Numbered from the stretch's first letter, positions 3,333-54,976 are shown. The stretch is DNA of 64,000 bases from an uncultured Acidobacteriota bacterium (GCA_963741955.1 CAVUKB010000010.1:320001-384000); one strand, 5' to 3'. Notes: generated by a model not told the origin, from the letters alone. Numbers and translations: made by a program.

Positions 3333-4091
3333 TCAATCGTCTCGATCACGTCGATCACCGTCGTCCCGATCGTGGTCGCTCTGGCCGCCGCGGCCGTCGC
3401 GCCACCCATCGCCCGACCGTTGGAGCGAATCGGCGACGAAGTTACGACCGGAGTACCATCCGCTGAAGGCGGCGTAGCTTCCGCGATGGAGTCCGCGGGC
3501 CCACCGGTTTCCGTCGCTGCGGCCGAGCGCCCTGGTGTCGATGGTGATGTCGCCGACGCGGTCGCTGTGCAGCACCACGAGATCGCGGTTCCGCTGGATG
3601 GAGACGATCGTTCCTTCGACGTACGCCGTGACGCGGCTGCCGTGCTGGTCGTACCCGCGGCCATACGTGTCGTTAGGGCCGTACGGATCGTACTGGCCGT
3701 AGGCGCGATCGCGCACGCTCTCGAGAACGGTCACTGAGCGGGCGTGGAGTCGCGAGGAGCGGGACCCGGAGAGGTCGACGCCGACCCGGTCACCCCTCTC
3801 GAGGTCGCGGATCCGGTAACGGCGGCCGCGATACCACGCCACGATCCCTCCTTTGGCGTCGATCCGGAGAACGCCACGGTTCGTCCGAAGGGTGAATTCA
3901 TCTCCGTTCGGATTGACCCAGTCGACCACGCCTTCGACATCCCACCGGCTTTGCGTCGATGACCCTCCGCCGTCCCCCGGTCCGTTCGTCCTCCAGTCGA
4001 GACGCTGTTCCGCGAATACGGACAGTGCCGAGAGGGCGAAGACCGCGATGGCGATTGTCGTAACTCTTTGAATTCTTGTGCCTTGTACCAT
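3333..4091 (-). CDS. Secreted hypothetical protein with two small beta-barrel (DUF5666-like) repeats
   Basis: GGAGG lies upstream of the ATG at 4091; signal peptide ends ...SVFA; two repeats VEGVV...DLERGDRVGV and VEGTI...GLHRGSYAAF. Confidence 0.6.
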   Translation of the reverse strand: MVQGTRIQRVTTIAIAVFALSALSVFAEQRLDWRTNGPGDGGGSSTQSRWDVEGVVDWVNPNGDEFTLRTNRGVLRIDAKGGIVAWYRGRRYRIRDLERGDRVGVDLSGSRSSRLHARSVTVLESVRDRAYGQYDPYGPNDTYGRGYDQHGSRVTAYVEGTIVSIQRNRDLVVLHSDRVGDITIDTRALGRSDGNRWARGLHRGSYAAFSGWYSGRNFVADSLQRSGDGWRDGRGGQSDHDRDDGDRRDRDD

Positions 4092-4341
4092 CGGTTCCTC
4101 CCGTTCGATCGAGCTTCCGTCAACCGAAGTGCGCAATCGTCGCGCCATGCGGGCGCCGGGACGACCTGATTCGAGTTCCCCTTCAGGAGGGTCATGTCTT
4201 CGGTTCGCTCACGACCGAGAGGCTCCGCGATCCGCAGGCTCGGATTTCCAATTTCGAAGAGCGAAAGAGACGCAAGTGAATTCTCGTTCTGGTGTATGGT
4301 CCTCGGAGGGAGTTCCTCCTGTTTTGTCGCGGAGCTCGGGC

Positions 4342-5727
4342 ATGGCGAAAACCGATCAGAAAGCGATCACCTCCGGCGACACCGTCGGTGGAATTCCCAA
4401 CGCCCTGAGGTCTCAGGTGGCGGTCCTCGACGCGGACGGATGGATCGTCTGGACCAATGAGTCGTGGCGGCGTTTCGCGCAGGAAAACTCGACCACCGAC
4501 GGCGCCGCCTATCTCGGATGGAACTACCAGTCCGTCTGTGAGGCGGCTGCTCGATCCGGCGCGTCCCCCGCCGCGGCGGTCCTTCAGGGAATCATGTCCG
4601 TGCGTGCGGGAACGAGCGACGAGTTTTCGCTGGAATACGAATGCCACTCGCCGTCGGCGGAGCGCTGGTTTCTGCTTCGCGTGACGCGTCTCGCGGCCGA
4701 TTCCCCCGGGGCGCTGGTGGTCACGCACGACGACATTACCGAGCGGAGACGGGCGGAGCTCGAATTGAGGGAAGCCGAGCAGAGGCTCCGGAAAGTTCTC
4801 GAGACGCTCCCGGTCGGGGTCTGGATCATGAACCGTGAAGGGATGATCGTTCACGGCAATCCGGCGGGACAGAAGATCTGGGCGGGGGCCCGTTACGTCG
4901 GCCCGGGTGATTTCGGAGAATACAAAGGATGGTGGGTCAGCAGCGGGAAGCCGATCGCCGCGGACGAGTGGGCGGCGGCGCGCGCGATCCGGAACGGTGA
5001 GATCTCCATCGACGAGGAGGTCGAGATCGAGTGCTTCGACGGAAGCCGGAAGATCATTCTCAACTCCGCGATGCCGCTGCTCGACGCGAACGGAAGGACC
5101 TCCGGCGCGATCATCGTCAACCAGGACATCACCCAACGGAAACGTTACGAGAGCGCGCTGCAGCTGGCGAACGAGAAGTTCGAGAGGGCGAATCTCGAAC
5201 TGAAGGAAGCGCTCGCGCGCGAGCATACTCTCGCGGGCCTCGACAGCCTCACCGAAGTGCACAACCGGCGTTACTTCTTCGAGCTCGCCGAGCACGAGCT
5301 CAACGTCGCCACGCGCTACGGTCACGCGATCTCGATCGTTCTGTTCGATATCGATCACTTCAAGGCGGTCAACGATCAATTGGGACACGAGGCGGGAGAC
5401 TACGTGCTGAAAGAGGTCGCCGGGATCATGAAGACGCAGCTTCGCGAGTCGGACGTCCTCGCGCGGTACGGGGGGGAAGAGTTCATCCTCCTGATGCCGA
5501 ACACCCGCGCTGTCGACGCGATGGTGGTCGCGGACCGGATCCGCGAGCGGATCGCTTCCGTGACCATGTTCCTGCGCACCGGAGTCAGCGTGGTGACCGT
5601 CAGTGGAGGCGTGGCCGATACCGAATCGGCGACCGGAGGGCTCGACGCCATCGTACGGGAAGCCGACCGCGCGCTCTATCGCGCGAAGGCAGCGGGGCGT
5701 AACCGCGTGATGATGAACCGGCGTTGA
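4342..5727 (+). CDS. PAS-PAS-GGDEF diguanylate cyclase
   Basis: Two PAS/PAC units (THDDITERR, NQDITQRK), then DSLTEVHNRR, DIDHFKAVND, an RESD I-site, RYGGEEF and ADRALYRAKAAGRNRV. Start placed at MAKTDQ by inference. Confidence 0.93.
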   Translation: MAKTDQKAITSGDTVGGIPNALRSQVAVLDADGWIVWTNESWRRFAQENSTTDGAAYLGWNYQSVCEAAARSGASPAAAVLQGIMSVRAGTSDEFSLEYECHSPSAERWFLLRVTRLAADSPGALVVTHDDITERRRAELELREAEQRLRKVLETLPVGVWIMNREGMIVHGNPAGQKIWAGARYVGPGDFGEYKGWWVSSGKPIAADEWAAARAIRNGEISIDEEVEIECFDGSRKIILNSAMPLLDANGRTSGAIIVNQDITQRKRYESALQLANEKFERANLELKEALAREHTLAGLDSLTEVHNRRYFFELAEHELNVATRYGHAISIVLFDIDHFKAVNDQLGHEAGDYVLKEVAGIMKTQLRESDVLARYGGEEFILLMPNTRAVDAMVVADRIRERIASVTMFLRTGVSVVTVSGGVADTESATGGLDAIVREADRALYRAKAAGRNRVMMNRR

Positions 5728-6699: not shown

Positions 6700-7995
6700 A
6701 TGAGCAGAATCAAGGGGACACCGCGGCAAGGCCTCTTCGCGGCGACCCTCGGCTTTTTCGTCGGCTTTGCAGCCGTCGCGCTGTTCGGTCCCACCGCGAA
6801 ACTCTTCTCCGATCCGCTGCACCTCTCGTCGCTGGCTGCAGGATTTCTGATCGCCATGCCGGCACTCTCGGGCTCTCTTCTCCGGATCCCGTTCTCCGCG
6901 TGGGTCGACACGACCGGAGGCCGCAAGCCATTTCTCGTGCTCCTCACTCTCTCTCTGGTCGGAATGGCGGGCGTTCTCGCGGTGGTCCTCCTCTTCTATC
7001 CGTCGAGGATGACCGGCGCCGTCTACCCGCTGCTCCTCCTTCTCGGCGTCCTCTGCGGATGCGGGATCGCGACTTTCTCCGTCGGGATCAGTCAGGTCGC
7101 GTACTGGTATCCGCAGAAATCGCAGGGACGAGCGCTGGCGATCTTCGCCGGGATCGGAAACGTCGCGCCGGGCATCTTTTCTTTTCTCATTCCGGTGGCG
7201 CTGGTGAGTCTCGGACTGAGTGGTGCCTATCTCGCGTGGCTGATCTTCCTCGCCGCAGGCACCATCGTCTACTTCGCGTTCGGCCGGAATGCCTGGTTCT
7301 TCCAGCTCCGCACGGAGGGAGCGTCGGTCGACGAGGCGAGGAATGAAGCGAAGTCGATGGGACAGGAGCTCTTCCCCGCCGGAAGTCTTCGTGAAAGTCT
7401 CGCTGCATCCGCGAAAGTCTGGAAGACGTGGGCGCTGGTGTCGATCTACTTCACAACCTTCGGCGGGTTCATCGCGCTCACCGCATGGCTGCCGACGTAC
7501 TGGACGCAATATTTCGGGCTGTCGCTCGTCACGGCGGGCCTTCTCACCGGGATCTATTCGGTCCTCACCTCGCTGATCCGGATCGTGGGCGGACTGGTCG
7601 CCGACAAGCTTCGTGAAGGGGGTGAGAACACCGCTGTCCTCGCTCTCCTGGTGATGCTGGTGGGAGCGCTGGTGATGACCATGGCTCGTGAATACGAGCT
7701 CGCCATTCCGGGGATCATTCTTCTCGCCTCCGGAATGGGGATCTGCAACGCGGCGGTGTTCAAGATCGTTCCGCAGGCGGTGCCGCACGCCGTAGGCGGC
7801 GCTGCGGGGTGGGTGGGTGGACTCGGCGCGTTCGGCGGATTCGTCATTCCGCCGATGCTCGGCTTCGCGGTCAGGGATCTCGGTAACCGCGGCTACGCGA
7901 TCGGCTTCATCATCTTCATCTTCCTTGCTCTCTTTTCGCTCGCGATGGCCTGGATGCTCAAGTACATCCCGAATCCCGATGAGGTTCCGACGTGA
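6700..7995 (+). CDS. narK: Nitrate/nitrite transporter (MFS, NarK family)
   Basis: 12-TM MFS pattern with GSLLRIP, FSVGISQVAYWYP..QGRAL..FAGIGN, TTFGGF and GWVGGLGAFGGF; first gene of the nar operon. Confidence 0.92.
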   Translation: MSRIKGTPRQGLFAATLGFFVGFAAVALFGPTAKLFSDPLHLSSLAAGFLIAMPALSGSLLRIPFSAWVDTTGGRKPFLVLLTLSLVGMAGVLAVVLLFYPSRMTGAVYPLLLLLGVLCGCGIATFSVGISQVAYWYPQKSQGRALAIFAGIGNVAPGIFSFLIPVALVSLGLSGAYLAWLIFLAAGTIVYFAFGRNAWFFQLRTEGASVDEARNEAKSMGQELFPAGSLRESLAASAKVWKTWALVSIYFTTFGGFIALTAWLPTYWTQYFGLSLVTAGLLTGIYSVLTSLIRIVGGLVADKLREGGENTAVLALLVMLVGALVMTMAREYELAIPGIILLASGMGICNAAVFKIVPQAVPHAVGGAAGWVGGLGAFGGFVIPPMLGFAVRDLGNRGYAIGFIIFIFLALFSLAMAWMLKYIPNPDEVPT

Positions 7996-8825
7996 GAGCG
8001 CTCGTGCGGGGATCGCTCGTCGTGCTCGCGGCTCTGGCGGTCGGAGCTGCGGCGTGGGGGGAGAGCCCGCCCGGACCGGCGAGTTCCGCGAGTGCGTCAC
8101 CCGCCGCCGCGAACGCACCGGCCGATCCCGCAGCCGACTACTTTCTGGACACCTGCGCCGGGTGCCACACCATCGGGGGTGGAGTACTCACAGGGCCGGA
8201 CCTCCAGAAAGCCACTGCATGGTCAGCGGACGACCTCCATGCCGCAGTCAAGCGGATGGAGAAAAACGTCGGTCCGATGAGCGACGAGCGGGTCAGCGCT
8301 CTGGTGTCCCTCCTGAAGAGCGGCGAGGTTCAGAAGCGGCTCGAGGCGGCGAAGGAGCGACGCAGGGTCGAGCTCACCGCGACACTGGTGCCGGGCTCCC
8401 CCGCGACCGGCCGCGATCTCTTCTTCGGAGCGAAGACCTTCGCCTCCGGCGGAATTCCGTGTGCAGCCTGCCACGCCGTCGGCGGCGAAGGAGGAAACAT
8501 GGCGGTCGACCTCACTGCCGTCTATCCGCGACTCGGCGAACAGTCGCTGATGTCGACCATCGAACGTCCGGCCTTTCCTCTGATGAAGACCGCCTACGGC
8601 GCTCACGTCGTGAGCTCTCAGGAGGCGATGGATCTCTCGGCCTTTTTCAAGTCCGTGGGGAAAGGGCTGCCGCGTGACGCGAGCGTTCCGCCCCGGAATC
8701 TCGCAGCGCTGCACGGAACCGCGGCCGGGCTGGTGATCGTCGCACTCGGCGGTGTGGCGTGGATCTTCCGCTCGCGTCGCGGCGGATTGAGAAGACGGAT
8801 GCTGCGCGACTCGTACAAGAGGTGA
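7992..8825 (+). CDS. narC: Membrane-anchored dihaem c-type cytochrome (NarC-like)
   Basis: Signal peptide; CAGCH (followed by GGGVLTGPDL) and CAACH; C-terminal TM helix with a basic tail; directly upstream of narG. Confidence 0.8.
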   Translation: MRALVRGSLVVLAALAVGAAAWGESPPGPASSASASPAAANAPADPAADYFLDTCAGCHTIGGGVLTGPDLQKATAWSADDLHAAVKRMEKNVGPMSDERVSALVSLLKSGEVQKRLEAAKERRRVELTATLVPGSPATGRDLFFGAKTFASGGIPCAACHAVGGEGGNMAVDLTAVYPRLGEQSLMSTIERPAFPLMKTAYGAHVVSSQEAMDLSAFFKSVGKGLPRDASVPPRNLAALHGTAAGLVIVALGGVAWIFRSRRGGLRRRMLRDSYKR

Positions 8826-8831
8826 ATCGAC

Positions 8832-11800
8832 GTGACCTGGATCCAGGATCTCTTCAGCCCCGAAGCCCGCTCGTGGGAAGACTTCTACCGGAACCGGTGG
8901 TCTCACGACAGAGTCGTCCGCAGCACCCACGGAGTGAACTGCACCGGCGGCTGCAGCTGGAACATCCACGTCAAGCAGGGTCTGGTGACGTGGGAGTACC
9001 AGGCGCTCGACTATCCGCGTTTCGATCCCGACATTCCGTCCTACGAGCCGCGCGGATGCCAGCGCGGGATCTCGCACTCCTGGTACGTCTACAGTCCTCT
9101 GCGGGTGAAGTACCCGTACGTGCGCGGGACTCTCCTCGACCTCTGGAAAGAATCGCTGAAGAAGCACTCCGATCCGATCGCAGCGTGGGAATCACTGGTG
9201 ACCGACGATGCGGCGCGCGCGAAGTGGCAGAAGGCGCGCGGGAAGGGAGGGTTCCGCCGCGCAAGCTGGAACGAAGTGCTGCCGATGCTCGCAGCCGCGA
9301 ACCTCTACACTGCACGACGCCACGGTCCCGACCGGGTGATCGGCTTCTCGCCCATCCCGGCGATGTCGATGGTCAGCTATGCCGCCGGCGCGCGGTATCT
9401 GCAGCTTCTCGGCGGGGTCTGTCTTTCGTTCTACGACTGGTACTGCGATCTTCCTCCCGCCTCGCCGGAGATCTGGGGCGAGCAGACCGACGTCGGGGAG
9501 AGCGCCGACTGGTACAAGTCGCGGTACATCGCGGTAGTCGGCTCCAACGTCCTCGGGACGCGGACGCCCGACGCGCACTTTCTGGTCGAAGCGCGGCATC
9601 AGGGAGCGAAAGTCGTGGTCTTCTCTCCCGATCTCAGTCAGACGTCCAAGGTCGCCGACGAGTGGGTTCCGATCCATCAGGGACAGGACGGCGCGTTCTG
9701 GATGGCGGTCACCCACGTCCTCCTCGAGGAGTTCCACACGAAGAGAACCGTTCCCTACTTCGACGACTATCTCCGCCGATACACGGACGGCCCGTTCCTG
9801 GTCGAGCTCGAGCCGGACGGCCATGGCGGTTATGGTGCCGGATCGCTGCTGCGCAGCTCCGCGCTCCCCGAGTCGAAGGACGAGGAGCTCGGCGAATGGA
9901 AGCTCGTGGTCATCGACGAAGATCTGAAGCTCCGGATGCCGCAGGGGACGGTCGGGCATCGCTGGCAGAAGAAGAAGGGACAGTGGAATCTCGAGTCGCG
10001 CGATGCGCGCAGCGGCGAAGAATACACGCCGCGTCTCACCCTCGCCGGAGCGAGTGACGAGGTCGTCCTCGTCCGGATCGACGACTTTTCGGAGCCGGGG
10101 ACTCCGGGCCTGATCCGGCGCAGCGTTCCCGCTCGACGGATCGAGACGATGGACGGACCGCGGCTCGTCACCACCGCATTCGATCTTCTCCTCGCCCAGT
10201 ACGGCGTCCGCCGCGACCTCGGCGAAGGGCCGGAGGGCGAATGGCCCGAAGGTTACGCCGACGCCGCGCAACCGTTCACTCCTGCATGGCAGGAACAGTT
10301 CACCGGAGTGGCGGCCGCCGACGTGATCCGCTTCGCGCGCGAGTGGGGGAAGACTGCGGAGACGACGAAGGGGCGCTGCATGATCATCATCGGCGCCGGC
10401 GTCAATCACTGGTACCACAACAATCTGATTTACCGCGCCGCCATCACCGCGCTGATGGTCACCGGCTGCATCGGTCGCAACGGCGGCGGTTGGAACCACT
10501 ACGTCGGTCAGGAGAAGCTCGTCCCCGTCGCATCCTGGGCGCCGATTGCGTTTGCGCAGGACTGGGGCGGTCCGCCACGTCTGCAGAACGCGCCGTCGTT
10601 CCACTACATGCACTCGGATCAGTGGCGCTACGACCGTCCGTTCGGCGAAGTCTGTCCGGTCGCCGACGACGGCCAGCCGATGGCGTCCGGCCACACCGCC
10701 GACCTGCAGGCTAAAGCCGTTCGCTGTGGCTGGCTCCCCTGTTATCCGCAGTTCGATCGGACCAACGCGAGCGTTCTCGAAGAGGCGCGTGCGGCAGGTG
10801 AGGATGTCGCGAGTCACGTGGTCGGGCAGCTCCGCCAGCGCAACCTTCGCTTCTCGATGGAGGATCCCGACAACCCCGAGTCGTTCCCACGCGTCTGGTA
10901 CATCTGGCGCGGGAACGCCCTGCAGGCCTCCGCCAAAGGACACGAGTACTTCCTCGAGCACTACCTCGGTACCGACAGCGCTTCGGTCGCGGCGGAGGAA
11001 GGGGAGGGATTCGTCGAGGACGTCGTCTGGCGCGACGTCGCGGCAAAGGGGAAGCTCGACCTGGTCGTCGACCTGAACTTCAGGATGGACACCTCCGCCC
11101 TCTACTCCGATGTCGTCCTCCCCGCCGCCTCGTGGTACGAGAAGGACGACCTCAACTCGACGGACCTCCACAGCTTCATCCATCCACTCCAGCGCGCGAT
11201 CACCCCCTGCTGGGAGTCGAAGAGCGACTGGCAGATCTTCCGCGAGCTCGCCCGGGTGACCCAGGAGATCGCACAGGAGTGGATGCCTGACCCCTTCGAG
11301 GATCTCGTCCTCACCCCTCTGATGCACGACACCGCCGCTGAAGTCGCGCAGCCGGACGTGCGTGACTGGGCGAAGGGAGAGTGCGAGCCGGTTCCCGGAA
11401 AGACGATGGCGAACATCACCGTCGTCACCCGTGACTACGCGAATCTCTACAACCGGTTCGTCTCCCTGGGGCCGAAATTCCGAGACGGCGGACTCGGCGC
11501 GCACGGTACGAAGTATCCGGTCGACGATGTGTACGACCGCTGGCGCGAGATTCACGCGGTCGAAAAGTGGGATGGCGAGACGTATCCCTCTCTGCGCGAA
11601 GACCGCTCCGTCTGTGACACCATTCTCCGTTTCGCGCCGGAGACGAACGGCGAGCTCGCGTGGCGGGCGTTCCGCTCCGAGTCGGAGAAGACCGGTCGCG
11701 ACCACACCCATCTCGCGGAGAAGACCCGTGGCGTGACGTACAGCTTCGACGATCTGGTGCGCCAGCCTCGTCGAGTCCTCACCTCCCCGTACTGGACCGG

Positions 11801-12473
11801 CATCACGGGCGACGGCCGTACGTACGCGGCATTCTGTCAGAACGTCGAAGAGCTGATCCCGTGGCGCACCCTCACCGGACGGCAGCATCTCTATCTCGAC
11901 CACCAGGTCTACCGGGCCTTCGGCGAGCACCTCCCGACCTTCAAACCGCGCCCGGACCAGAGGGCGCTCGGCGATCTCGAACAAACCCCCGCCGACCATC
12001 GTTCGCTGGTCCTCAACTACCTCACCCCTCACGGGAAGTGGCATATTCACTCCACGTACGGCGACACGCTCCGGATGGAGACGCTCTCCCGCGGCATCGA
12101 GCCGATCTGGATGAACGACCGCGACGCGGGACTCCTCGGGATTCGCGACAACGACTGGGTCGAGGTGCTGAACGACCACGGCGTCGTCGTCACCCGCGCG
12201 TGCGTCAGCGCACGCATCCCGCGCGGAATGTGCTTCATCTACCACGCGACGGAGCGGACCATCGGAACGCCGAAGACGACCACTCGACTTCGTAACGGAA
12301 AACCGCGGCGCGCCGGCGCGCACAACAGTCTGACCCGGGTGCGGCTCAAGCCGGTGTTCATGATCGGCGGGTACGCGCAGTTCACGTACGCATTCAACTA
12401 CTGGGGGCCGCCCGGCGTGAACCGGGACACCTACGTCGTGGTTCGCAAGACGGAGAGGAAACCCGAATGGTGA
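8832..12473 (+). CDS. narG: Respiratory nitrate reductase alpha subunit (cytoplasm-facing, no Tat leader)
   Basis: [14 protein letters not shown] (FS0), [57 protein letters not shown]; 1213 aa. Confidence 0.97.
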
Positions 12474-12487
12474 GCTCGAACGGAGAA

Positions 12488-13992
<1,505 letters not shown>

Positions 13993-13996
<4 letters not shown>

Positions 13997-14553
13997 GCGC
14001 GGTGGACGTGGAACCGCTTTGTCTGGGAGTGGAGACACTCGGCGTGCTGTCGCCTCTCTTCCGGTATCCGGCAGAGGGATACGCGCGTGCTCTCGACTTT
14101 GCGCGCGTTTTCGAGACGGAGATCGACGCGGCTGCAGGAAGCGCGCTCGCTCGATTCGCCGCAGAGATCGAGCCGCTCAGTCGAGGCCAGCTCGAGTCGA
14201 CGTACACCCACACCTTCGATCTCGCGCCGTCGTGCAGCCCGTACCTCGGCGCGCACCTCTTCGGTGACGAGACGCCGGATCGCGCGCGGCTGATGGTGGG
14301 CCTCCGGATGACGTACCGGAACCACGGGATCGACGTCGACGGGCGTGAACTGCCGGACCACGTCGCGGAGGTGCTCGAACATGCGCGCTGCTTCGAAGGC
14401 GCAGAGTGGTTCGAGCTCGGAAGGCTGATCCTGATTCCCGCGCTCGATCGGATGACGGCGATTCTCGAATCAACGACGAATCCGTACCGGCATCTCCTCG
14501 ACGCGACCCGGCGAGTGGCTCGGACACTTTTCGAAGAAGGAGGTCTATCGTGA
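13993..14553 (+). CDS. narJ: Nitrate reductase molybdenum cofactor assembly chaperone
   Basis: ATGA overlap with the narH stop; LFRYP, YTHTFDL..SPYLG.HLFG, ELPDHV, NPYR motifs. Confidence 0.9.
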
Positions 14554-15878
14554 CCGGCGCCCCGATCGAAAACCTCCTTCTCACCGGGATTCCCTACGCC
14601 GCGATCGTCGTCTTCATCGCCGGGATGTTCTGGCGGATTCGATCGCAGTTCTCGATCTCATCGCTCTCCTCGCAGTTTCTCGAAAGTCGATGGCTCGTCT
14701 GGGGCTCGGTCCCGTTTCACCTCGGGATCACCATCCTGTTCATCGGACATCTGATTCCGGTCATCATCCCGGGGGCGTGGAAAGTACTCGTCTCGAATGC
14801 CTCGTTCCGCATCGCCGTGGAGAGCGTCGGACTCGGCGCGGCGGTACTCACCCTGATCGGGCTGCTCGTCCTCTTCGTGCGTCGGATCACTTCGCGGACG
14901 GTGCAGCCGAATTCGACGGTGATGGATCTGGTGGTGCTCGGAATCCTGATCTTTCAGGTCGCGGTGGGAACGGGAGTGGCGGCGCTTCACCGGTGGGGAT
15001 CACTCTGGTCGGTGGGAACGACCACGCCGTACCTCTGGAGTCTCCTCACCCTCCACCCCGATCCGGCCCTGGTCGGCGGGATGCCGCCTCTGATGCAGCT
15101 CCACCTCACAGGCGCGTGGGTGGTGCTCGCGCTGATCCCGTTCACCCGCCTCGTGCACATGTTCTCCCTCCCTCTGCAGTACCTTGCCAGACCGCCGCAG
15201 CGCGTGATCTGGGCGAGCGCTCGAAGACGTCTCGCGGACGAGCGGCGTGAGGAACGGGACGTTGCGGGACGGCGTCTCCTCCTGAGGGGCGCGGTCGGTG
15301 TGGGAGCCGCGGGCGTCCTTCTCTCCATCGGTGTCGCCGACAAACTCTTCAACTACTTCCGCGGCCCGCAGATGACGCTGGACGAAGAAGCCGCGCTCCT
15401 CAAGAAACGACTCGGCCGGCTCGAAGCGACGACCGAGCAGCGGCAGCTCGAGCTCGAGCGGATGCGGAAGTCGTACATCCGCGTCGCGCGTCTCGGCGAT
15501 CTCTCACGCGACACCGGCTTCTACTTCGTCGATTACCAGATGCGGCCGGCGCTCGCGTTCCGGAACGCCGAGGGTCTGCCCCACCTGATCTCGGCCAAGT
15601 GCACGCACCTCGGGTGCACGGTGGCGAAGGACGTCGACCCGGAAGGACGGATCGTCTGTCCGTGCCACATCTCGTACTTCAACGTCGCGACCGGCGTCCC
15701 GCAGCCGGGATCGCCGGCCAAGGCGCCGCTTCCGATGCTCGGCTGGGTGCTGCGCGAGCCTCAGGGCGGCATCGTCGCGAAGAGAACCGCCGACGGACGG
15801 ATGGAGGGGAAGATCGATCCGGCGGTGCTCGACGACTACGAAGTGTGGATCTCGCGCGAGATGGAGGTTCAGGCCTGA
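14550..15878 (+). CDS. narI: Nitrate reductase gamma subunit (NarI) fused to a C-terminal Rieske [2Fe-2S] domain
   Basis: GTG at 14550 follows GGAGG. NarI motifs SSLSSQFLE, PFHLGI..IGH and QLH..PFTRLVH give four haem His. These are followed by GRRLLLRG plus a TM helix, a helical linker, and Rieske boxes CTHLGC and CPCH, all in one frame. Confidence 0.88.
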   Translation: MTGAPIENLLLTGIPYAAIVVFIAGMFWRIRSQFSISSLSSQFLESRWLVWGSVPFHLGITILFIGHLIPVIIPGAWKVLVSNASFRIAVESVGLGAAVLTLIGLLVLFVRRITSRTVQPNSTVMDLVVLGILIFQVAVGTGVAALHRWGSLWSVGTTTPYLWSLLTLHPDPALVGGMPPLMQLHLTGAWVVLALIPFTRLVHMFSLPLQYLARPPQRVIWASARRRLADERREERDVAGRRLLLRGAVGVGAAGVLLSIGVADKLFNYFRGPQMTLDEEAALLKKRLGRLEATTEQRQLELERMRKSYIRVARLGDLSRDTGFYFVDYQMRPALAFRNAEGLPHLISAKCTHLGCTVAKDVDPEGRIVCPCHISYFNVATGVPQPGSPAKAPLPMLGWVLREPQGGIVAKRTADGRMEGKIDPAVLDDYEVWISREMEVQA

Positions 15879-16978
15879 TGCCGACACGATTCCAGGCGGC
15901 GACCGCATTCCTCTCCGAGCGCCTTCCGCTCGAGAAGATGAGCGTGCGCTCGCTCATCACCACCAAGATGGTGCCGGTCCACCGCATGAGCTGGGCCTAC
16001 TACCTCGGCGGACTCACGCTCTTCTTATTCATGGTCCAGATGGTGACGGGCCTGATGCTCCTCTTCTATTACGAGCCGACGGTCAGTGATGCGCACGCAT
16101 CGGTCGAGAGGATCACCGAGCACGTGGTCGGTGGTGGGCTGGTGCGGAATCTTCACACCTGGGCCGCGTCGGCCATGATTCTGATGGTGCTCGCGCACAT
16201 GATCACCACCTTCGCGATGAAGGCGTTCGACAAACCGCGCGAGATCACCTGGCTGAGTGGAGTGACTCTGCTTCTTCTCGCGTTCGGATTCGGGTTCACC
16301 GGTTACCTTCTGCCGTGGCACCAGATCGCGGTCAATGCGACCAAGGTGGGACTGCAGTCGATCGAAGACGTCGGGCAATACCTCCCGACGGCGATCGCCA
16401 CCTGGCCTACCCGGCTCCGGGAGCTCATCCAGGGCGAACCGGCGGTGGGACAGGCCACGCTCTCGCGTTTCTACGCCATCCACGTCGTCGTCCTCCCGCT
16501 GGTGTTCCTCGGGTTAGTCGGGCTCCACCTTCTCTCCGTGCAGCTTCACGGCATGAGCCGCGGAGTCGACCGGCCGACGGACCGCACCGAGCGCTTCTTC
16601 CCGTTCTTCATCCTCAAGGATTTCTGGGTGTGGGGCGTGGCGTTCCTGGCGATCTTCACCCTCGCTCTCACGCTGCCGTTCGAATCGTTCTTTCAATATC
16701 CCCTTTTCGAGGCCTACAACGCGATGGGCTCGACGCCGGACGGGATCAAGCCGGAATGGTATTTCTACTTCGTCTACTATCCGCTCGAGCTGCTCCCGTT
16801 CTGGGTGGTGGGGCTCCTGATGAACGGCGCGATCGTCACGCTGTTCGTCTCACCCTGGATCTTCAAAGGGACCAAACGACGGACTCTACAGACGCTCGCG
16901 GTGATCGCGACGACGTACCTCGTGGTGATGACGCTCTTCGGGGGTCAGATCTACAGCGTCTTCCGAGGAGGCAAGTGA
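15878..16978 (+). CDS. Cytochrome b subunit of a Rieske/cytochrome b (bc-type) complex
   Basis: TGATG coupling to narI-Rieske; YYLGG, RNLHTW...LAH, TGYLLPW, TLSRFYAIH...LH, and the Qo motif IKPEWYF. Confidence 0.93.
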   Translation: MPTRFQAATAFLSERLPLEKMSVRSLITTKMVPVHRMSWAYYLGGLTLFLFMVQMVTGLMLLFYYEPTVSDAHASVERITEHVVGGGLVRNLHTWAASAMILMVLAHMITTFAMKAFDKPREITWLSGVTLLLLAFGFGFTGYLLPWHQIAVNATKVGLQSIEDVGQYLPTAIATWPTRLRELIQGEPAVGQATLSRFYAIHVVVLPLVFLGLVGLHLLSVQLHGMSRGVDRPTDRTERFFPFFILKDFWVWGVAFLAIFTLALTLPFESFFQYPLFEAYNAMGSTPDGIKPEWYFYFVYYPLELLPFWVVGLLMNGAIVTLFVSPWIFKGTKRRTLQTLAVIATTYLVVMTLFGGQIYSVFRGGK

Positions 16979-17634
16979 TGCGCGCGCGTCTGCTCGGCGC
17001 GATGACCTTGGCGCTGTTGGTCTCTGCGAACGCCTGGGCTTATCCCGAGTTCCAGACCTGGATCTCGAAGCACTCCGGCCATTCCGTCGACTGCGCGATG
17101 TGCCACGTGAATCCGGAGGGGCCGGAGGGATTGGGGGAGGGGCAGATCAGGGGTCTCGACCGTCAGGAGCTCGAACGGCTGAACGACGCGCGTGCGGCGT
17201 TTCAGCCCGGGATCAGGATCGACAGTCCGATCCTGAACGAATTCGGGAATCGCATCATCGAACGGCTCGGACGGAAGGAGTTTCTGGAGATCCGAGTGAC
17301 GGATCCGGGGCGGCTGGTTGCGAAGTACGGCTTCGAATCCGATCTCGACGGCGACGGGATCCCCGACGCACAGGAGTATCTCGACGGGACGCTTCCGATC
17401 GACCCGCGGAGTGGCGATCCATGGCTGCTGTTCGCGCATAATCTCGGCCGCCGATGGCTCGACCTCCTGATGGTGATCCTCGCTACGCTGTGCGGGCTCT
17501 TCGGTCTCAACCAGATGCTCCACTGGTTCGAATTCGCGTCGCGCGAAGAAGAGACCGCGGATGCGACGGTGGACGAACGACATCCCCGGCCGCGCCGCCG
17601 CCCCACCCGCGCACGGACTTCGATTTCGAGCTGA
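16978..17634 (+). CDS. Membrane-anchored monohaem c-type cytochrome-like protein with a DxDxDG loop
   Basis: TGATG coupling to cyt b; signal peptide ...SANAWA; CAMCH; DLDGDGIPDAQE; C-terminal TM helix. Confidence 0.7.
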   Translation: MRARLLGAMTLALLVSANAWAYPEFQTWISKHSGHSVDCAMCHVNPEGPEGLGEGQIRGLDRQELERLNDARAAFQPGIRIDSPILNEFGNRIIERLGRKEFLEIRVTDPGRLVAKYGFESDLDGDGIPDAQEYLDGTLPIDPRSGDPWLLFAHNLGRRWLDLLMVILATLCGLFGLNQMLHWFEFASREEETADATVDERHPRPRRRPTRARTSISS

Positions 17635-37658: not shown

Positions 37659-37764
37659 ATCGCGCGCGATGCGCAAATTCATGTTGCCGTGACCAACATC
37701 CAGGCGGGCTCGACGCGTGCCCGCCGGACCGAAGCCCTCGCGCCAACGAAACGTTCCGTCCTGT

Positions 37765-38184
37765 TCGCGACCGTCGTCGTGTCGATCTCGTCCATCGGAT
37801 CGTACGTCCAGTGCCACGTCGCGCCATCCGCACGGATCTCCTCGAAGAGGTTCCCGTGCTCGTCGTAGTGATACGTCGTCACATTTCCTCGGGCGTCTTC
37901 GAGCGTCTCCAGACGGTCCGCGTCGTCGTACGTGTACGTCGTGACCGCTCCCTCCGCGTCCGTTTCCTTGACGCGGTTCCCTCGGAGATCATAGTCGCTC
38001 TTCGTCTCCCGCCCCTCCGGGTCCGTCTTCTTGACGAGATGCCCGCGCGTGTCATACAGGAAGATGGTGACGAGCGGCCGGTCCGGATCGCTCATGTCGA
38101 TCGACATCGCCAGCCGGTTCTGCGCGTCGTACTCGAAGCGCGTGAGGTAAGTGTCGGTGGTTCCGTCAGGCCGCTTCTCAATGC
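37765..38184 (-). pseudogene. Rhs/YD-repeat fragment 1
   Basis: FEYDAQNRL..YDTRGHL..TDPEG..YDLRGNR..YDDADRL..YDEHGNL; largely matches 42700-42965. Confidence 0.8.
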
Positions 38185-38273
38185 AGCCCTCGATCGTCCG
38201 CCTTTTCGCGCTCCGCGACACAGCGCCTTTGCGCCCGACCGATCGCGATTGGATTCACAATGAGGGTCGGATG

Positions 38274-39934: not shown

Positions 39935-41446
39935 TCAGGGTCCTGAATGGCGTATCGCACTTAGCATCGGGACCTCCCCACCAGTCGGCAACCGATGGAA
40001 ATCCTCGTGAACGATGATGTCGAGGCCTTCGGTGAAACCTTCGCCCGGCACGTAGTAGGTTCGGCTCTTCCACGGACGATGCGAGTCGTCCATGGAAGCG
40101 GCGTCGCTGATGAGGAGGCCTTGGGGGATGAGCTCCGACGGCGATTCCACCGAGGAACCCCATACCTCCGCTGCGATCCTGATCCAGGCGATTCCGGAGG
40201 GACAGAAAATCGCATCGGGAAATCCTCTGAGGCCCTCGCTGATGATCGTCCGCTTCCATGACTGCAACTCTCGGCTCAGTGCGTTGTGAAATGAATCCTT
40301 GTCGGCGTCAAGAATGGCACGAACCATGTCGTGGTACTCTTTCTCGTCGCCATCTTTCGGCGGATGAGATTTGAGCCAGTCGGTAACCGTGGAGAGATCT
40401 CGTTCCACCAGGGCAAGAAACGGGTGTCCCGCATCCGGAGCATCGCCTGGCCGAGAGCGGGCGATCGCTATACACCGTCGGGCAAGGGCGAAGTCGCCTG
40501 CGACGATCGCTAACCACGCTCCTCTGGGGTGCTCGAGAAGATAACGAAGTCTCTTCGGCAGTACCGCACCCGCTGCGCAGGCGCGATCGAACTCGCACGT
40601 TGCCTCCGCTGCAAGGCGGAAATATGCAAGTGCTTTCGAGTAATCCCTCTCGCCGACCGCCACCTGTCCGATGTCCTCATAGTCTCGCGCCAGATCCAGA
40701 AGGCGGTGCGTTTCACCGTTCTCGTACCGCTGAATCGCAAGTTCGACCCGATCCGACTCCGAAAGTCTCGCCTTGTGCCGGCGGAGATCGTCGGTGGAGA
40801 ACAGGGCAACCGCCTTCCCTCGGCTCAGCTTTGGGGGCCGGAGGTACTCTCCCTTCCGCATCAGCATGAAACGGAGCTCGTAATCTGATGGTGGAGCGAA
40901 ATCCGAACCATCGAACGCCTCGCGCAGCGCGTCGTCGAAGGGCTTTTCATACCCGAAGTCCGACTCGCCGAGTGCCACTCGATCGAACGACATTCGGCCA
41001 GCCTCGAACCGGAGTAGAGTTTCCGTCCCGCCGAGACCATAAGCGGCCCCACGTCTGAGTCGGCCATCTTGGAAAAGGATGCCGGCCGAGGCACAGGTGC
41101 CATCACTCCTCAGCAGGCACCACGCCGGACCGGCAACAGTGCTGGCCACCTCGGATAAAACCAGCTCGAAGCGCGACAGAAGTTCTCGAACGCACTCGCG
41201 TGCATCGTCGTCCCCCGCGACCTGATCGACAAGGTGAGCCATGCCTTCGGGCAGCCCGCCCATTTCCAGTTCCTTCCCCCTGTAACCGGAGAGCGTCAGC
41301 GTCGCCGGCATCGACTCAGTTGGGGCGGGACTATAGTCCAGTGACACCTGCACGGGCTCTTTCAGCAGGCCGAGGGAGTTCTGCAGGCGCTTCGCGATCA
41401 TCCTGAGCCGCTCGGGATCGCATCTGGTCAGAACGAAAGCTTCCAT
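39935..41446 (-). CDS. Hypothetical protein with an Imm49-like C-terminal region (candidate immunity protein)
   Basis: 503 aa in Rhs context; C-terminal AWLAIVAGDFALAR...AILDAD...FHNAL...GIAW...SELIP pattern recalls the immunity 49 family. Confidence 0.45.
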   Translation of the reverse strand: MEAFVLTRCDPERLRMIAKRLQNSLGLLKEPVQVSLDYSPAPTESMPATLTLSGYRGKELEMGGLPEGMAHLVDQVAGDDDARECVRELLSRFELVLSEVASTVAGPAWCLLRSDGTCASAGILFQDGRLRRGAAYGLGGTETLLRFEAGRMSFDRVALGESDFGYEKPFDDALREAFDGSDFAPPSDYELRFMLMRKGEYLRPPKLSRGKAVALFSTDDLRRHKARLSESDRVELAIQRYENGETHRLLDLARDYEDIGQVAVGERDYSKALAYFRLAAEATCEFDRACAAGAVLPKRLRYLLEHPRGAWLAIVAGDFALARRCIAIARSRPGDAPDAGHPFLALVERDLSTVTDWLKSHPPKDGDEKEYHDMVRAILDADKDSFHNALSRELQSWKRTIISEGLRGFPDAIFCPSGIAWIRIAAEVWGSSVESPSELIPQGLLISDAASMDDSHRPWKSRTYYVPGEGFTEGLDIIVHEDFHRLPTGGEVPMLSAIRHSGP

Positions 41447-41659
41447 CGGTGGGTGAGATTAGCATGAGAGGCCAGGCACGCTGAGGGCCCCACTTCGCTC
41501 GGGCCGAACTACGTTGCCCAGGATGATTGGCAAGCTGCGCGCATCCCGACCGAGACACTGGCACGAGGTCGCAGCTGGCGATGAAGAGCGCGAACGTAAC
41601 TCCCGCAGCATCAGTCGATTGCTACCAGTTCCGAGACGCGAAGCTCTGACCCCAGGCTT

Positions 41660-43000
41660 CTCTGGCGTCGTCTGCGGGGTCTGTCCCGCGGGAGTCACGA
41701 CCTCCTCCACCTTCCTCCCGTTCGCGTCGTAGAGGTTCTCGAGCGTCGTTCCGTCGGCGAGCGTCGCCTTCGCAACGTGGTTCTCCGCGTCGTACTGGAG
41801 CACCGCTCCGGCCGTGCGCACGAGGTTCCCGTTCGCGTCGTACCCCAGCGTCTCCCCGCCGAAGCTCGCGTACTGGTTCCGCGTGTTGATCACCGTCGGC
41901 GTGACCGTCGTCGTCGCCGTCTGGGGCGTCTGCACGATATTCGTGATCGAGCGGTAGTTCAGCACCGGGTCGACGTCGTAGCTCGTCCTCCGCAGCATCG
42001 GATTCGTCTGCGTGTCCGTCTTCCAGAGCGTCTCCGCGATGATCGCCCCGATGCGATTGTGCTCGTAGTTCCACTTCCGCGCGAGACTCGCGCGAAGGAC
42101 GGCATTCTTCTCCCCTGCCGGGGAGCGGTCGTAGGTGACGTCGCGAACTGCGGTCCCGGAGATCGCACCCTCTGCGCACTCCGACTGACCACTGCATTGC
42201 GCTCGCTCCGCTCGCGCCGTCAGGGCGGAAGCCCTGACGCCCCCCGTCGCACTCGGCGCCGCGATGTCCCGGATCGAAGTCAGCCGCGCGTTCACGTCCC
42301 ATCCCCAGCTCGACGTGATCCCGTTCTCCAGCGTCCGGGTCACCTGACGCGGTCCCGCGTCCGCGTACATCACGATCGGCGCCGCGTTCCCGTTCTCTGT
42401 AATCGCCGCGATCCGTCCGAGCGGATCGATGCTTCGCGTGAGCGCGAGCCCCGAGGGGTATGTGACGCCCGTGAGGTTTCCGGCGGGATCGAACGCATGC
42501 GTCACCGTCCGCACCGGACCCTCTCCGATCTGCTGCGACTCCGTCAGCTCCCGGTCCAGCGAGTCGAATGTCGCCGTGGTCTTCACACCCTCGCTCGTCT
42601 TCGTTCCGGTCACTCGCCCGAGGTCGTCCACGGTATACGTGATCGCCGACGGACCGAGAACATTGGGCGCTCCGGCCATCGTCTTCGACGTCATCCGTCC
42701 CGCGTCGTCGTAGCCGTACGTCGTGACCGCTCCCACCGCGTCCGTTTCCTTGACGCGGTTCCCTCGGAGATCATACTCGCTCTTCGTCTCCCGCCCCTCC
42801 GGGTCGATCTTCTTCGTCAGATGCCCGCGCGTGTCGTACTGGAAGGTGGTGATGAGCGGCCGATCCGGATCGCTCATGTCGATCGACATCGCCAGCCCGT
42901 TCTACAGGTCGTACTCGAAGCGCGTGACATACGTGTCGGTGGTTCCGTCAGGCCGCTTCTCGATGCGTGTCTCGCTCTTCGGTTCCCGTTCGCGTCGTAC
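41660..43000 (-). pseudogene. Rhs/YD-repeat fragment 3 (truncated core, no toxin tip)
   Basis: Many YD repeats (YDDAGR, FDSLDR, FDPAGNL, YDANGNL, YDAENH). The 5' part carries a stop (YDL*) and a frameshift; no DPxG junction. Confidence 0.8.
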
Positions 43001-51877: not shown

Positions 51878-52795
51878 CTACTCCGGTGGCGGCGTCTTCT
51901 CCCGAAGATCTCTGGTCCAATCGCGCGTGCGCCATTGGAAGAGAGAAGTGCCTTCGGTTTCTGCGCCGCTCTCGAGCTCCTCCCGCTGCCGGCGCACGAA
52001 GCCGCGGAAACGCGCGAGGTACCGCCTGCTGCCGAACGACGCGGGATCCAGGTCGATCGCCTGCGCAATCAGGTCCAGATCGTGAAGCTCGCCGAGGGTG
52101 CGGGAGAGCTGCTTCATTGCACGCGCGCGGTCTTCGAGTGATGCGAAGCCGCTCTCGTCGAGAAATCGTGCGTGGTACCAGTGGATCTTGGCGACCTTCC
52201 TCCACTGATGAAAGCTCTCCGGAGTCCGCTCCTCGAGCGCGCGGCGCATCGCGCGGCGAGAGGAGCGGTAACTGCGGACGATTGCCTTCTCTAGATCGCG
52301 GCGGTTCATGTGGTCGACCGGCCAGGCTGCGACCCTCAATCGTTCCGCAGTCAGTTCGTGCTTCCATCGGGCCGTGGTCTCGCCGTCGATGCCGGTGGTG
52401 ACGTGGCTCACCAGGACTCGCCGGATTTTGGTGAACTCTCGTGCGGTCCACTCGTCGCGGAATCGCTCCCGCAGCCGGTCGATCGTCTCGACTCTCGCTT
52501 TCGCGTCGCGCGCGGCTGCCAGCTCGCGGCCCGCATCCCGAAACAGAGTCCAGTCCTGTCGACCTTTCCTGGGGAGAGCCCGGCGGAGCAGGTCGGTGAT
52601 CCCTCGAAGCTCTTTGAGGCGGCGCCGGACTTCGTGAACCATGACGTCGGGATCCGCTTCGTCCGATCCCAGATGCGCGATCGCGTCGTCGATCAGCTCG
52701 AGAGCCTTCCGGCGCAGGAGCTGCGGCGCGAATTCGCCGTCGTCCCTGGTGAAATCGAGGACCACCGATTCCGAGCTCGGGTCGGGCGTGCTCAC
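51878..52795 (-). CDS. CHAD domain protein (polyphosphate-binding)
   Basis: VHEVRRRLKELR, LAAARDA, FHQWRKVAK, LGELHDL. Confidence 0.9.
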   Translation of the reverse strand: MSTPDPSSESVVLDFTRDDGEFAPQLLRRKALELIDDAIAHLGSDEADPDVMVHEVRRRLKELRGITDLLRRALPRKGRQDWTLFRDAGRELAAARDAKARVETIDRLRERFRDEWTAREFTKIRRVLVSHVTTGIDGETTARWKHELTAERLRVAAWPVDHMNRRDLEKAIVRSYRSSRRAMRRALEERTPESFHQWRKVAKIHWYHARFLDESGFASLEDRARAMKQLSRTLGELHDLDLIAQAIDLDPASFGSRRYLARFRGFVRRQREELESGAETEGTSLFQWRTRDWTRDLREKTPPPE

Positions 52796-52939
52796 TTCGT
52801 TTCGTCTCCGGTGTGAGAATACTCTCGACCGGAGCCAAGGGGGAATCCCGCGGAAGATCCGCCTCCCGAGGTGCTTTCCATCGAATTTGCATATTCCGGA
52901 TGCCGAGGTCGCCGGTGCGACTTAAGTGTGTGAGGACAA

Positions 52940-54446: not shown

Positions 54447-54455
54447 GGTGAAGCG

Positions 54456-54932
54456 ATGCTGATCGTGTTGTTCCGGCATGGAATCGCGGAGAAGAAGGAC
54501 GGCGAGAAACCGGACGAAGAGCGCCGTCTGACGGACGAAGGACACCGGAAGATGAAGCGGATCTCCAAGCGGGTGGCGAAGATGATTCCCGATGCGGACG
54601 CCATCTACAGCAGCCCGCTCCTCCGAGCCTGGGAGACCGCCGAGTGGCTGCAGAAGAGATACGAGCGAAAGCTCGAGATTCAGTCGGCGGATGCGCTCGA
54701 GCCGGGGCGCGATCCGGAGGAGTTCCGGGCCCTGCTCCGTCGGAGCTCTTCGTCCTGCGCGTTTTTCGTCGGGCACGAGCCGCATCTCTCGTCGCTGATG
54801 CTGGCGCTGACGAAGATGCATCCCGAGTCGGAAGTCGCTTTGAAGAAGGGTGGGTGTTACGGGCTGGAGATGGACGGTCCGGACGACGTAGCACGGCTAC
54901 GGTTCATGCTCGAACCGGCGTTGCTCGAATGA
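54456..54932 (+). CDS. sixA: Phosphohistidine phosphatase SixA
   Basis: LFRHGIA, D..RRLT..G, SSPLLRA.ETA, VGHEP, LKKGG. Confidence 0.9.
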   Translation: MLIVLFRHGIAEKKDGEKPDEERRLTDEGHRKMKRISKRVAKMIPDADAIYSSPLLRAWETAEWLQKRYERKLEIQSADALEPGRDPEEFRALLRRSSSSCAFFVGHEPHLSSLMLALTKMHPESEVALKKGGCYGLEMDGPDDVARLRFMLEPALLE

Positions 54933-54976
54933 CGACCCCGCCGTCTGCATCGACTTTTGGTGTGCTGCAGGAGCTC

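Follow-up and report, generated by a model that had tools for sequence, protein, structure and literature searches.

We analysed a 64,000-nucleotide (nt) stretch of DNA from an uncultured Acidobacteriota bacterium (GCA_963741955.1 CAVUKB010000010.1:320001-384000), called the window below, and found in it a gene, narI::rieske, that joins NarI, the membrane subunit of nitrate reductase (Nar), to a Rieske iron-sulfur domain in one polypeptide. Between the two halves lie an internal twin-arginine (RR) motif and a sixth transmembrane (TM) helix. The fusion protein is very probably a dual substrate of the Sec and twin-arginine translocation (Tat) pathways ("class IV"), with five plus one TM helices (5+1) and its N-terminus outside (N-out). 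The gene stands in a strictly ordered module with genes for Nar and for cytochromes, from which we also propose a function; this functional part is less certain than the biogenesis.

The gene lies on the + strand at 14550-15878 and comprises 442 codons plus a stop, in an open and uninterrupted frame. Its start was placed at the GTG at 14550, giving a product of 442 amino acids (aa): AGGAGG lies upstream, the sequence GTGA is shared with the narJ stop, and the N-termini of homologues coincide. The GTG at 14406 was also considered as a start and is disfavoured by the homologue N-termini, by the AGGAGG before 14550 and by the GTGA overlap with narJ. Pfam recognised NarI (PF02665, residues 8-221, E 9e-56) and Rieske (PF00355, residues 311-393, E 1e-7), both passing the cut-off. 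Among NCBIfam models, narI (TIGR00351) was the sole one over its cut-off (113.8 bits vs 105.55), the Rieske half remaining under every cut-off. The parts of the gene, and the gene directly adjoining it, are as follows.

14550..15227, + strand: NarI domain, residues 1-226, with five hydrophobic helices (hydropathy peaks) and four invariant haem histidines, H57, H67, H185 and H203
15186..15269, + strand: basic, predicted cytoplasmic loop from helix 5 to RR, residues 213-240 (from its length and K/R counts)
15222-15260, + strand: basic stretch, residues 225-237
15267..15287, + strand: internal twin-arginine motif G-R-R-L-L-L-R, residues 240-246, with RR at 15270-15275
15288..15338, + strand: sixth, Gly/Ala-rich TM helix, residues 247-263, presumed uncleaved Tat signal anchor (from hydropathy and structure prediction)
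15339..15362, + strand: flank after helix 6, with the conserved basic residues K265 and R271
15378..15467, + strand: charged helical linker of 30 residues, 277-306 (helix in the predicted structure; kept in fused and unfused relatives)
15474..15875, + strand: Rieske [2Fe-2S] domain, residues 309-442 (Pfam PF00355, invariant ligands)
15600-15617, + strand: Rieske box I, C-T-H-L-G-C
15657-15668, + strand: Rieske box II, C-P-C-H
15878..16978, + strand: cytochrome b, long form (b plus the subunit IV part), 366 aa (Pfam PF00033, E 6.5e-39, and PF00032)

A short note made beforehand from the window (the original prediction) had located the RR pair at 15270-15275, and the codons CGG CGT stand there, encoding residues 241-242. 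The basic stretch, the G-R-R-L-L-L-R motif, the Gly/Ala-rich helix and the charged linker that it described are likewise all present where it put them.

A structure of the fusion protein was modelled with AlphaFold2 (AF2) from a 120-sequence alignment (mean predicted local distance difference test score (pLDDT) 85.7, predicted template modelling score (pTM) 0.52). The model contains an unbroken helix from residue 224 to 271, a break at 272-276, a second helix at 277-306 and a beta-rich domain at 309-442. Foldseek related the N-terminal half to chains of E. coli NarI (TM-scores of 0.76-0.81, normalised to target) and matched the C-terminal part with Rieske proteins; no solved chain in this search spans both halves. 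By sequence, E. coli NarI (1Q16_C) aligned with the fusion over residues 14-218 on 12-220 (E 7e-19), and the closest solved relative of the Rieske half was 3FOU/1NYK, the Rieske subunit of quinol-cytochrome c reductase (E 1e-7).

Homologues were collected in two ways. A word-indexed protein search yielded 559 matches at E <= 1e-3; the 120 listed proteins are ~440 aa long each and carry both Pfam domains. The alignment used below consists of the fusion protein and 119 listed homologues (50-68% identical), P0012, a 293-aa fragment of the window protein itself, being excluded. A genome scan, with one genome per species and patterns from the Rieske half, matched at least 563 loci, the best 80 of which were examined (42-67% identical); the remaining 483 may include unfused forms, the search patterns being Rieske-derived. 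The NarI-Rieske junction was spanned in all 80 examined loci. Public annotation gives no hint of the fusion: the source names encountered for the listed proteins (P0002-P0121) were all nitrate reductase (subunit) gamma.

We considered whether the fusion could be an assembly or gene-calling artefact in which two genes were merged. Some entries of the family are indeed artefacts, though in the opposite direction: the short entry P0122 is the tail of a frameshifted gene in locus L075, and P0124 has the same sequence as the C-terminal portion of the fused protein P0072. Against a merger stand the continuous frame, the same architecture in 120/120 listed proteins from several sources and the 80/80 loci that read across the junction. 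The probability of such an artefact is negligible, and it was rejected on the open frame and the recurring fusion.

The RR pair is strictly conserved. R241 and R242 are invariant in 120/120 aligned proteins, and residues 213-276 contain five invariant columns only (R214, W221, R241, R242 and G261). Of the 80 loci, 78 have RR at this place and 2 (L048 and L065) have KR; the second Arg is present in 80/80. Conservation of the pair across homologues, on which the original prediction had staked itself, was thus borne out in both samples. A K-R pair is said to occur naturally in some Tat signals. The surrounding positions are also constrained. At the 80 loci, the motif is composed of S44/A19/T6, R78/K2, R80, any residue, F71/L8/V1, L55/I13/V9, K47/R22 and G56/A23. 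In the 120-protein alignment, position -1 is S, G or A, position +2 is F (74) or L (44), position +3 is L, V, I or M, position +4 is K (54) or R (48) and position +5 is G or A. The Tat consensus is S-R-R-x-F-L-K (PMC7317946; papers are cited by PMC number, and statements about them refer to the available parts of their text). The family motif agrees with this consensus and is placed directly before the last TM helix.

The same segment was found near the N-terminus of unfused proteins. Residues 228-442 were used to search among shorter proteins, and 121 matches were looked at. At least 195 aa, a Met start and RR (71) or KR (8) at residues 5-37 characterise 79 of them. Eighteen of these 79 were inspected whole and have the same helix, the D-K flank, the same charged linker and a Rieske domain after the motif; a largely constant spacing between motif and box I (see below) speaks for this layout in the set at large. 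Several unfused Rieske proteins are encoded on contigs of 0.3-3.7 Mb and have N-terminal regions unrelated to NarI; P0140, P0168, P0177 and P0193, of ~227 aa and with an N-terminal RR anchor, lie on long contigs. Judging by this layout, these relatives are genuine signal-anchored Rieske proteins. When 1.84 billion cluster representatives were searched exhaustively without a profile, giving 704 matches at E <= 1e-3, the Rieske clade proved to be tight: only 29 matches remained at E <= 1e-10, and 16 of them at E <= 1e-30. The clade contains fused forms of ~423-441 aa and unfused forms of ~224-229 aa, and remoter unfused relatives (32-39% identity) likewise begin with RR and a helix. Because the unfused relatives carry the same motif, helix and linker near their N-terminus, the internal segment of the fusion is, by homology, a retained N-terminal Tat signal anchor.

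The comparison also bears on the long linker, which the original prediction had explained as letting the Rieske head of the fusion reach the Qo site. RR and box I are 110 residues apart in 113 of 120 fused proteins, and the same distance separates them in 74 of 81 unfused ones. With equal length in both forms, the linker is therefore a trait of the Rieske clade and not of the fusion, and its explanation as a fusion adaptation does not hold. On this evidence, the long linker is older than the fusion, or at least independent of it. A tree of fused and unfused Rieske sequences was computed by a quick IQ-TREE search, in which every second row of alignment A1 was omitted and P0005, P0007, P0009, P0011 and P0016 were dropped for a mismatch to the box I pattern. 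The fused/unfused label needs 6-7 changes on this tree, at least 3 of them forced by well-supported branches. Because some of the rows labelled unfused (P0124 and P0122) are gene-call artefacts, the tree yields no inference on the number of fusion origins.

On which side of the membrane the Rieske domain works can be judged from its own residues and from its partner. C351, H353, C356, C370, C372 and H373 are invariant in 120/120 proteins and make up bc-type boxes including two extra cysteines. In Rieske proteins outside the cytoplasm, the second cysteines of the two boxes are joined by a disulfide. The start of the adjoining cytochrome b overlaps the fusion stop (TGATG), and its residues H93, H107, H202 and H217 and its Qo motif P-E-W-Y at 292-295 are invariant in 73 sequences. 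Because the bc-type boxes with the extra cysteines are invariant and the adjoining cytochrome b has an invariant P-E-W-Y, the Rieske domain must, as we read these residues, function outside the cytoplasm. In an opposite arrangement, the Rieske domain would stay cytoplasmic, helix 6 would be re-entrant or peripheral, and electrons would be fed or drained at the NarH side. The cytoplasmic location of NarGH in this system (see below) speaks for it, as does the unreliable domain placement in the AF2 model. It is nevertheless highly improbable: extra cysteines such as the invariant C356 and C372 are characteristic of bc-type Rieske proteins located outside the cytoplasm, the Qo motif of the strictly linked cytochrome b marks an outer-side site, and the unfused homologues are laid out like normal signal-anchored Rieske subunits.

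An external Rieske domain constrains the topology of the fusion protein. The C-terminus of E. coli NarI is cytoplasmic in the 1Q16 structure. The end-to-end alignment with NarI and the K/R-rich loop behind it indicate that the RR motif would lie on the cytoplasmic side. With the NarI C-terminus in the cytoplasm and the Rieske domain outside, one further in-to-out span is therefore needed, and one is present. We propose that the five NarI helices would be inserted co-translationally by the signal recognition particle, Sec and YidC, so that the chain would start outside and helix 5 would end in the cytoplasm. Helix 6, weakly hydrophobic and placed after S/G-R-R-x-F/L-L-K/R and before basic residues, would be incompletely inserted by Sec and released on the cytoplasmic side. 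There the Rieske domain would fold and take up its 2Fe-2S cluster. The Tat translocase would recognise the membrane-tethered RR and carry the folded domain to the periplasmic side, and helix 6 would stay as an uncleaved sixth span.

The region around helix 6 was compared with the traits shared by known dual-targeted proteins: a weakly hydrophobic last helix that is preceded by a loop of 8 or more residues and followed by positive charges (Tooke et al., PMC5449189). The loop before RR is 27-30 residues long in 120/120 proteins, vs the stated minimum of 8. Over residues 214-246 the median number of K+R is 8 in the 120 proteins; R225 is present in 118/120 and R226 in 116/120. Behind the helix, residues 264-278 include one to four K/R in 120/120, and position 265 is K or R in 111/120. 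As a second hydrophobicity scale, beside that of Kyte and Doolittle, we used a crude Hessa-type sum without position weights, on which higher values mean lower hydrophobicity; by its median, helix 6 ranks as the least hydrophobic (3.92; other helices -1.91 to 3.34).

Several observations weigh against this biogenesis. The 19-residue Kyte-Doolittle mean of helix 6 in the window protein is 1.82, vs 1.74 for helix 5, and even on the crude scale just 65/120 proteins have helix 6 as their least hydrophobic helix. The motif of the window protein has Leu at the consensus Phe position, as in 44/120. The relative placement of the domains is not fixed by AF2 (pTM 0.52). All 80 examined loci are from metagenome-assembled genomes (MAGs). 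No TatA or TatC was found by Pfam among the 47 open reading frames (ORFs) scanned in the window, small ORFs being only partly covered, and Tat is assumed to be present in the organism.

Some of these observations would suit a simpler explanation, in which helix 6 is an ordinary Sec/YidC span, the arginines serve as a positive-inside signal or as a contact to NarH or lipid, and Tat is uninvolved. The loop is generally basic, with its median of 8 K/R and a second, nearly invariant pair (R225-R226), and the Kyte-Doolittle hydrophobicity of helix 6 matches that of helix 5. Yet the conservation extends beyond charge to the whole S-R-R-x-F-L-K pattern, and the sole substitution in the pair is K for the first Arg, in 2/80 fused and 8/79 unfused proteins. 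The motif is kept at the N-terminus of the unfused relatives, where NarI is absent. In addition, Rieske cluster uptake is cytoplasmic, and the studied bacterial bc-type Rieske proteins are Tat substrates (PMC7317946). We therefore give the ordinary-span explanation only a slight chance and retain dual Sec/Tat targeting as the very probable route.

Dual targeting has been described for a small set of families: actinobacterial Rieske proteins with 3 or 5 helices, the Sco3746 haem-molybdenum family, a polyferredoxin family and membrane-bound YkuE relatives (PMC5449189). A 2026 review treats such proteins as class IV Tat substrates and names the streptomycete Rieske example only (PMC13673990). The word "NarI" is absent from the available texts of both papers. 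We found no description of a NarI-Rieske fusion or of the module in the literature, mostly non-subscription literature being covered and the supplementary lists of PMC5449189 lying outside the scope.

The closest parallel is actinobacterial QcrA (Sco2149 of S. coelicolor, QcrA of M. tuberculosis and a 5-helix variant in Kitasatospora), a Tat-exported Rieske protein with an internal, uncleaved RR anchor after Sec-inserted helices (PMC3471235, PMC5449189, PMC7317946). Its last helix is of low hydrophobicity and has basic residues behind it (PMC5449189). The facts about QcrA on which the original prediction had drawn agree with PMC3471235 and PMC5449189. QcrA differs in having two or four extra helices and an N-terminus inside, whereas the fusion has a complete five-helix NarI dihaem cytochrome b and an N-terminus predicted to be outside. 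The fusion is not a QcrA member, as NCBIfam bc1_QcrA_actin scored 32.3 bits vs a cut-off of 275 and matched residues 351-398 only, and its Rieske half falls into a separate tight clade. The Sco3746 family shares a haem-b polytopic domain, a conserved RR, a final Tat-inserted helix and an exported cofactor domain with the fusion, and its dual dependence was shown experimentally (PMC5449189). By description, it differs in its membrane domain, in exporting a molybdenum-cofactor domain and in being 4+1 rather than 5+1.

We rate the fusion as a new family in the dual-targeting class, and also as a Nar with a covalent link between its membrane subunit and a bc-type complex. The original prediction of a new member of this rare class is supported by the conserved RR, the match to the Tat consensus and the homology to N-terminal anchors, and NarI-Rieske lies outside the families of PMC5449189. 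The fusion would add a sixth architecture for proteins needing both Sec and Tat (5+1, N-out, with a dihaem cytochrome as the Sec part) and would offer a natural test of the published rules for the hand-over from Sec to Tat. On a more speculative reading, to which we give less than even confidence, it would be the first dual Tat/Sec substrate with a complete functional cytochrome as its Sec-inserted part.

Besides the fusion gene and cytochrome b, the module in the window comprises the following genes.

6700..7995, + strand: NarK-like transporter of the MFS family (Pfam MFS_1, E 8e-30), its stop overlapping the next start (GTGA)
7992..8825, + strand: membrane-anchored dihaem cytochrome c, 277 aa (Pfam Cytochrome_CBB3, E 1.5e-9)
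8832..12473, + strand: NarG, catalytic subunit, of the predicted cytoplasm-facing type (NCBIfam narG, 1521 bits vs cut-off 1084)
12467..13996, + strand: NarH, iron-sulfur subunit (NCBIfam narH, 639 bits vs cut-off 524; Pfam Fer4_11 and Nitr_red_bet_C)
13993..14553, + strand: NarJ chaperone (NCBIfam narJ, 68.7 bits vs cut-off 59.35)
16978..17634, + strand: monohaem cytochrome c, 218 aa, with a signal peptide, a C-terminal membrane anchor and one CxxCH

Between narK and the last cytochrome gene, six of seven neighbouring gene pairs overlap (GTGA, ATGGTGA, ATGA, GTGA, TGATG and TGATG), and the sole gap in the operon, of 6 nt, precedes narG; the module genes look tightly translationally coupled. 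The dihaem cytochrome c has a signal peptide, CxxCH at residues 55 and 157, a C-terminal hydrophobic anchor and a basic tail. Its homologues have two CxxCH in 45/45 and the C-terminal anchor in 44/45. An export signal on NarG (a twin-arginine motif or a hydrophobic stretch before the FS0 motif) was found in 0/47 homologous loci. Because of this absence and the narG equivalog score, the NarG active site would face the cytoplasm. Two possible regulators are encoded upstream of the module, a PAS-PAS-GGDEF diguanylate cyclase (4078-5727, + strand) and a hybrid histidine kinase/receiver (134-1276, + strand).

Synteny was counted among the best 80 loci, restricted to those with enough flank, and required the same order on the same strand. 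Upstream of the fusion, NarJ was present in 73/73 loci, NarH in 65/65, NarG in 55/55 and the dihaem cytochrome c in 53/53; downstream, cytochrome b was present and directly adjoining in 74/74 and the monohaem cytochrome c in 70/70. The complete module, with all six neighbours in order, was found in 47/47 loci. In many related loci, an ORF for a NarK-like protein is found close to the module, frequently just 3' of the monohaem cytochrome c gene. Phylum labels were taken from the titles of the MAG records, with bin labels as given. By these labels, the 80 loci belong to Verrucomicrobiota (17 loci), Obscuribacterales/Melainabacteria (17 loci), Hydrogenedentota (11 loci), Acidobacteriota (7 loci), Planctomycetota (5 loci), unclassified bins (5 loci), Proteobacteria (3 loci), Myxococcales/Deltaproteobacteria (3 loci), Omnitrophota (3 loci), Sumerlaeota (2 loci), Bacteroidota (2 loci), "Clostridia" (2 loci), Nitrospiraceae (1 locus), FCPU426 (1 locus) and Gemmatimonadota (1 locus). 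The module thus occurs in MAGs under at least 13 phylum-level names.

The strict module together with the fusion points to a Nar-bc supercomplex that is hard-wired. That the two genes are fused argues strongly for NarI and the Rieske/cytochrome b complex acting together. The exported Rieske head would work at the Qo site of the adjoining cytochrome b, and the fusion would tether the Rieske/cytochrome b complex to cytoplasm-facing NarGH. In the electron path that we prefer, Rieske/cytochrome b would oxidise quinol in a Q-cycle, and the high-potential electron would pass via the anchored cytochrome c haems to the outer NarI haem and on to NarH and NarG. By textbook bookkeeping, this would move two charges per two electrons from the Q-cycle and two from the inward transfer, ~4 in all, vs 2 in classical NarGHI. 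We put forward tentatively, with less than even confidence, that the module encodes a widespread machine of this kind. In it, NarI would be a transmembrane wire and no longer a quinol oxidase, electrons would run from the Rieske protein through the monohaem cytochrome c, with its putative new fold, and the NarC-like dihaem cytochrome c to NarH/NarG, and the charge moved per electron would be about doubled. If so, the energy yields of nitrate respiration assumed for the carrier groups may be wrong.

Bacterial Nar of the cytoplasmic type is stated to take its electrons without a Rieske/cytochrome b complex (PMC3509893). The module contradicts, at the gene level, the textbook view that Nar is fed straight from quinol with the bc complex bypassed, and the unexplained dependence of Nar1 on bcc-aa3 is the sole bacterial hint to the contrary in the literature consulted (PMC7931247). 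Nar1 of Streptomyces coelicolor needs the bcc-aa3 supercomplex and co-purifies with its subunits, and the authors propose that a dihaem cytochrome c passes electrons to the NarI haem bD while the Q-cycle keeps running (PMC7931247). There, as proposed here, a cytoplasm-facing NarGHI depends on a Rieske/b/c complex; the association is non-covalent in S. coelicolor (PMC7931247), whereas here one NarI-Rieske polypeptide is encoded with the partner genes in one operon. In haloarchaeal Nar, Rieske and cytochrome b genes are also clustered with narGH, and Q-cycle electrons are proposed to serve nitrate reduction; according to the available text, NarGH faces outward there, NarI is absent and nothing is fused (PMC3509893). 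Thermus thermophilus NarCGHJI resembles the module in having a membrane-anchored periplasmic dihaem cytochrome c as the first nar gene, a likeness of architecture only, and NarC binds NarI in two-hybrid assays (PMC7694296). The available text describes neither a Rieske fusion nor a cytochrome b gene for Thermus (PMC7694296).

E. coli NarGHI (1Q16) and the system described here have much in common: NarG, NarH, NarJ and NarI all score over their NCBIfam equivalog cut-offs, the NarI haem histidines are kept and NarG is without an export signal. The E. coli enzyme differs in lacking a C-terminal Rieske domain on NarI and the dihaem cytochrome c, cytochrome b and monohaem cytochrome c of the operon. 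It also has a quinol-site lysine, K86, which is not conserved at the aligned position of the fusion. This position is variable (S85 in the window protein). Residues 78-89 have no K/R in 39/120 proteins, and an Arg stands at 83 or 84, one or two positions before the K86-aligned one, in 69/120. With Arg so close by in many homologues, NarI may still oxidise quinol itself; this counts against our functional proposal, as does the existence of close unfused NarI relatives. These are ~220 aa long (P0293, P0307, P0329 and P0292), lie on long contigs and end right after a conserved P-P-Q-K-V-V-W.

The main rival to the proposed function accepts the same biogenesis and leaves quinol oxidation to NarI itself. 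The Rieske/b/c proteins would then form a separate bc-type complex, merely tethered for assembly or stability, that feeds nitrite, NO or N2O reductases or an oxidase. It fits with the NarI half, which scores over the narI equivalog cut-off and keeps its four haem histidines, with the full Rieske/b/c set encoded in the module and with the electron transfer from Nar to Nir and Nor proposed for Thermus NarC (PMC7694296). We find it a serious alternative, although less likely than not: a covalent tether and a seven-gene synteny in 47/47 loci are difficult to account for if the two enzymes are independent, Pfam detected no nir, nor or nos among the 47 window ORFs scanned (small ORFs only partly covered), and the flow in the Streptomyces precedent is from bc to Nar.

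The enzyme could also run as a nitrite oxidoreductase, with the tethered bc-type unit supporting reverse flow from cytochrome c to quinone. A very similar cluster in Nitrobacter, with a cytochrome c and NarGHJI-like proteins, encodes a nitrite oxidoreductase (PMC7694296). In the window, however, NarG scores as the narG equivalog and a NarK-type transporter is linked to the module. Moreover, the groups to which the hosts are assigned (Obscuribacterales, Hydrogenedentota, Verrucomicrobiota and others) are not known to oxidise nitrite. Nitrite oxidation is thus a very unlikely role, and nitrate reduction fed through the Rieske/cytochrome b complex is the function that we tentatively prefer.

The monohaem cytochrome c at 16978-17634, one of the proposed carriers, gave no Pfam or NCBIfam match. 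Exactly one CxxCH is present in 71/71 homologues. Its AF2 model is all-helical (pLDDT 93.5), and Foldseek matched it to no PDB entry at E <= 1e-3. Seventeen residues ahead of CxxCH lies the predicted mature N-terminus, Y-P-E-F, which hardly varies, and a D-x-D-x-D-G loop at residues 122-127 is conserved. Among the homologues, no conserved Met or His was found as a candidate sixth haem ligand. In cytochrome f, the haem is ligated by the N-terminal amine. A relationship to cytochrome f, suggested by Y-P-E-F and the absent sixth ligand, was considered; the all-helical model and the lack of a PDB relative ruled out the cytochrome f fold.

Elsewhere in the window, two ORFs with RHS repeats are located ~3 kb apart on the - strand, at 37679-38221 and 41459-42889 (Pfam E 2e-28 and 5e-31), and a 503-aa ORF without a family lies between them at 39935-41446. 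The RHS ORFs may represent a fragmented or polymorphic RHS toxin locus. A polyphosphate cluster at 51878-57181 encodes a CHAD protein, a Ppx/GppA phosphatase, a histidine phosphatase and polyphosphate kinase 1.

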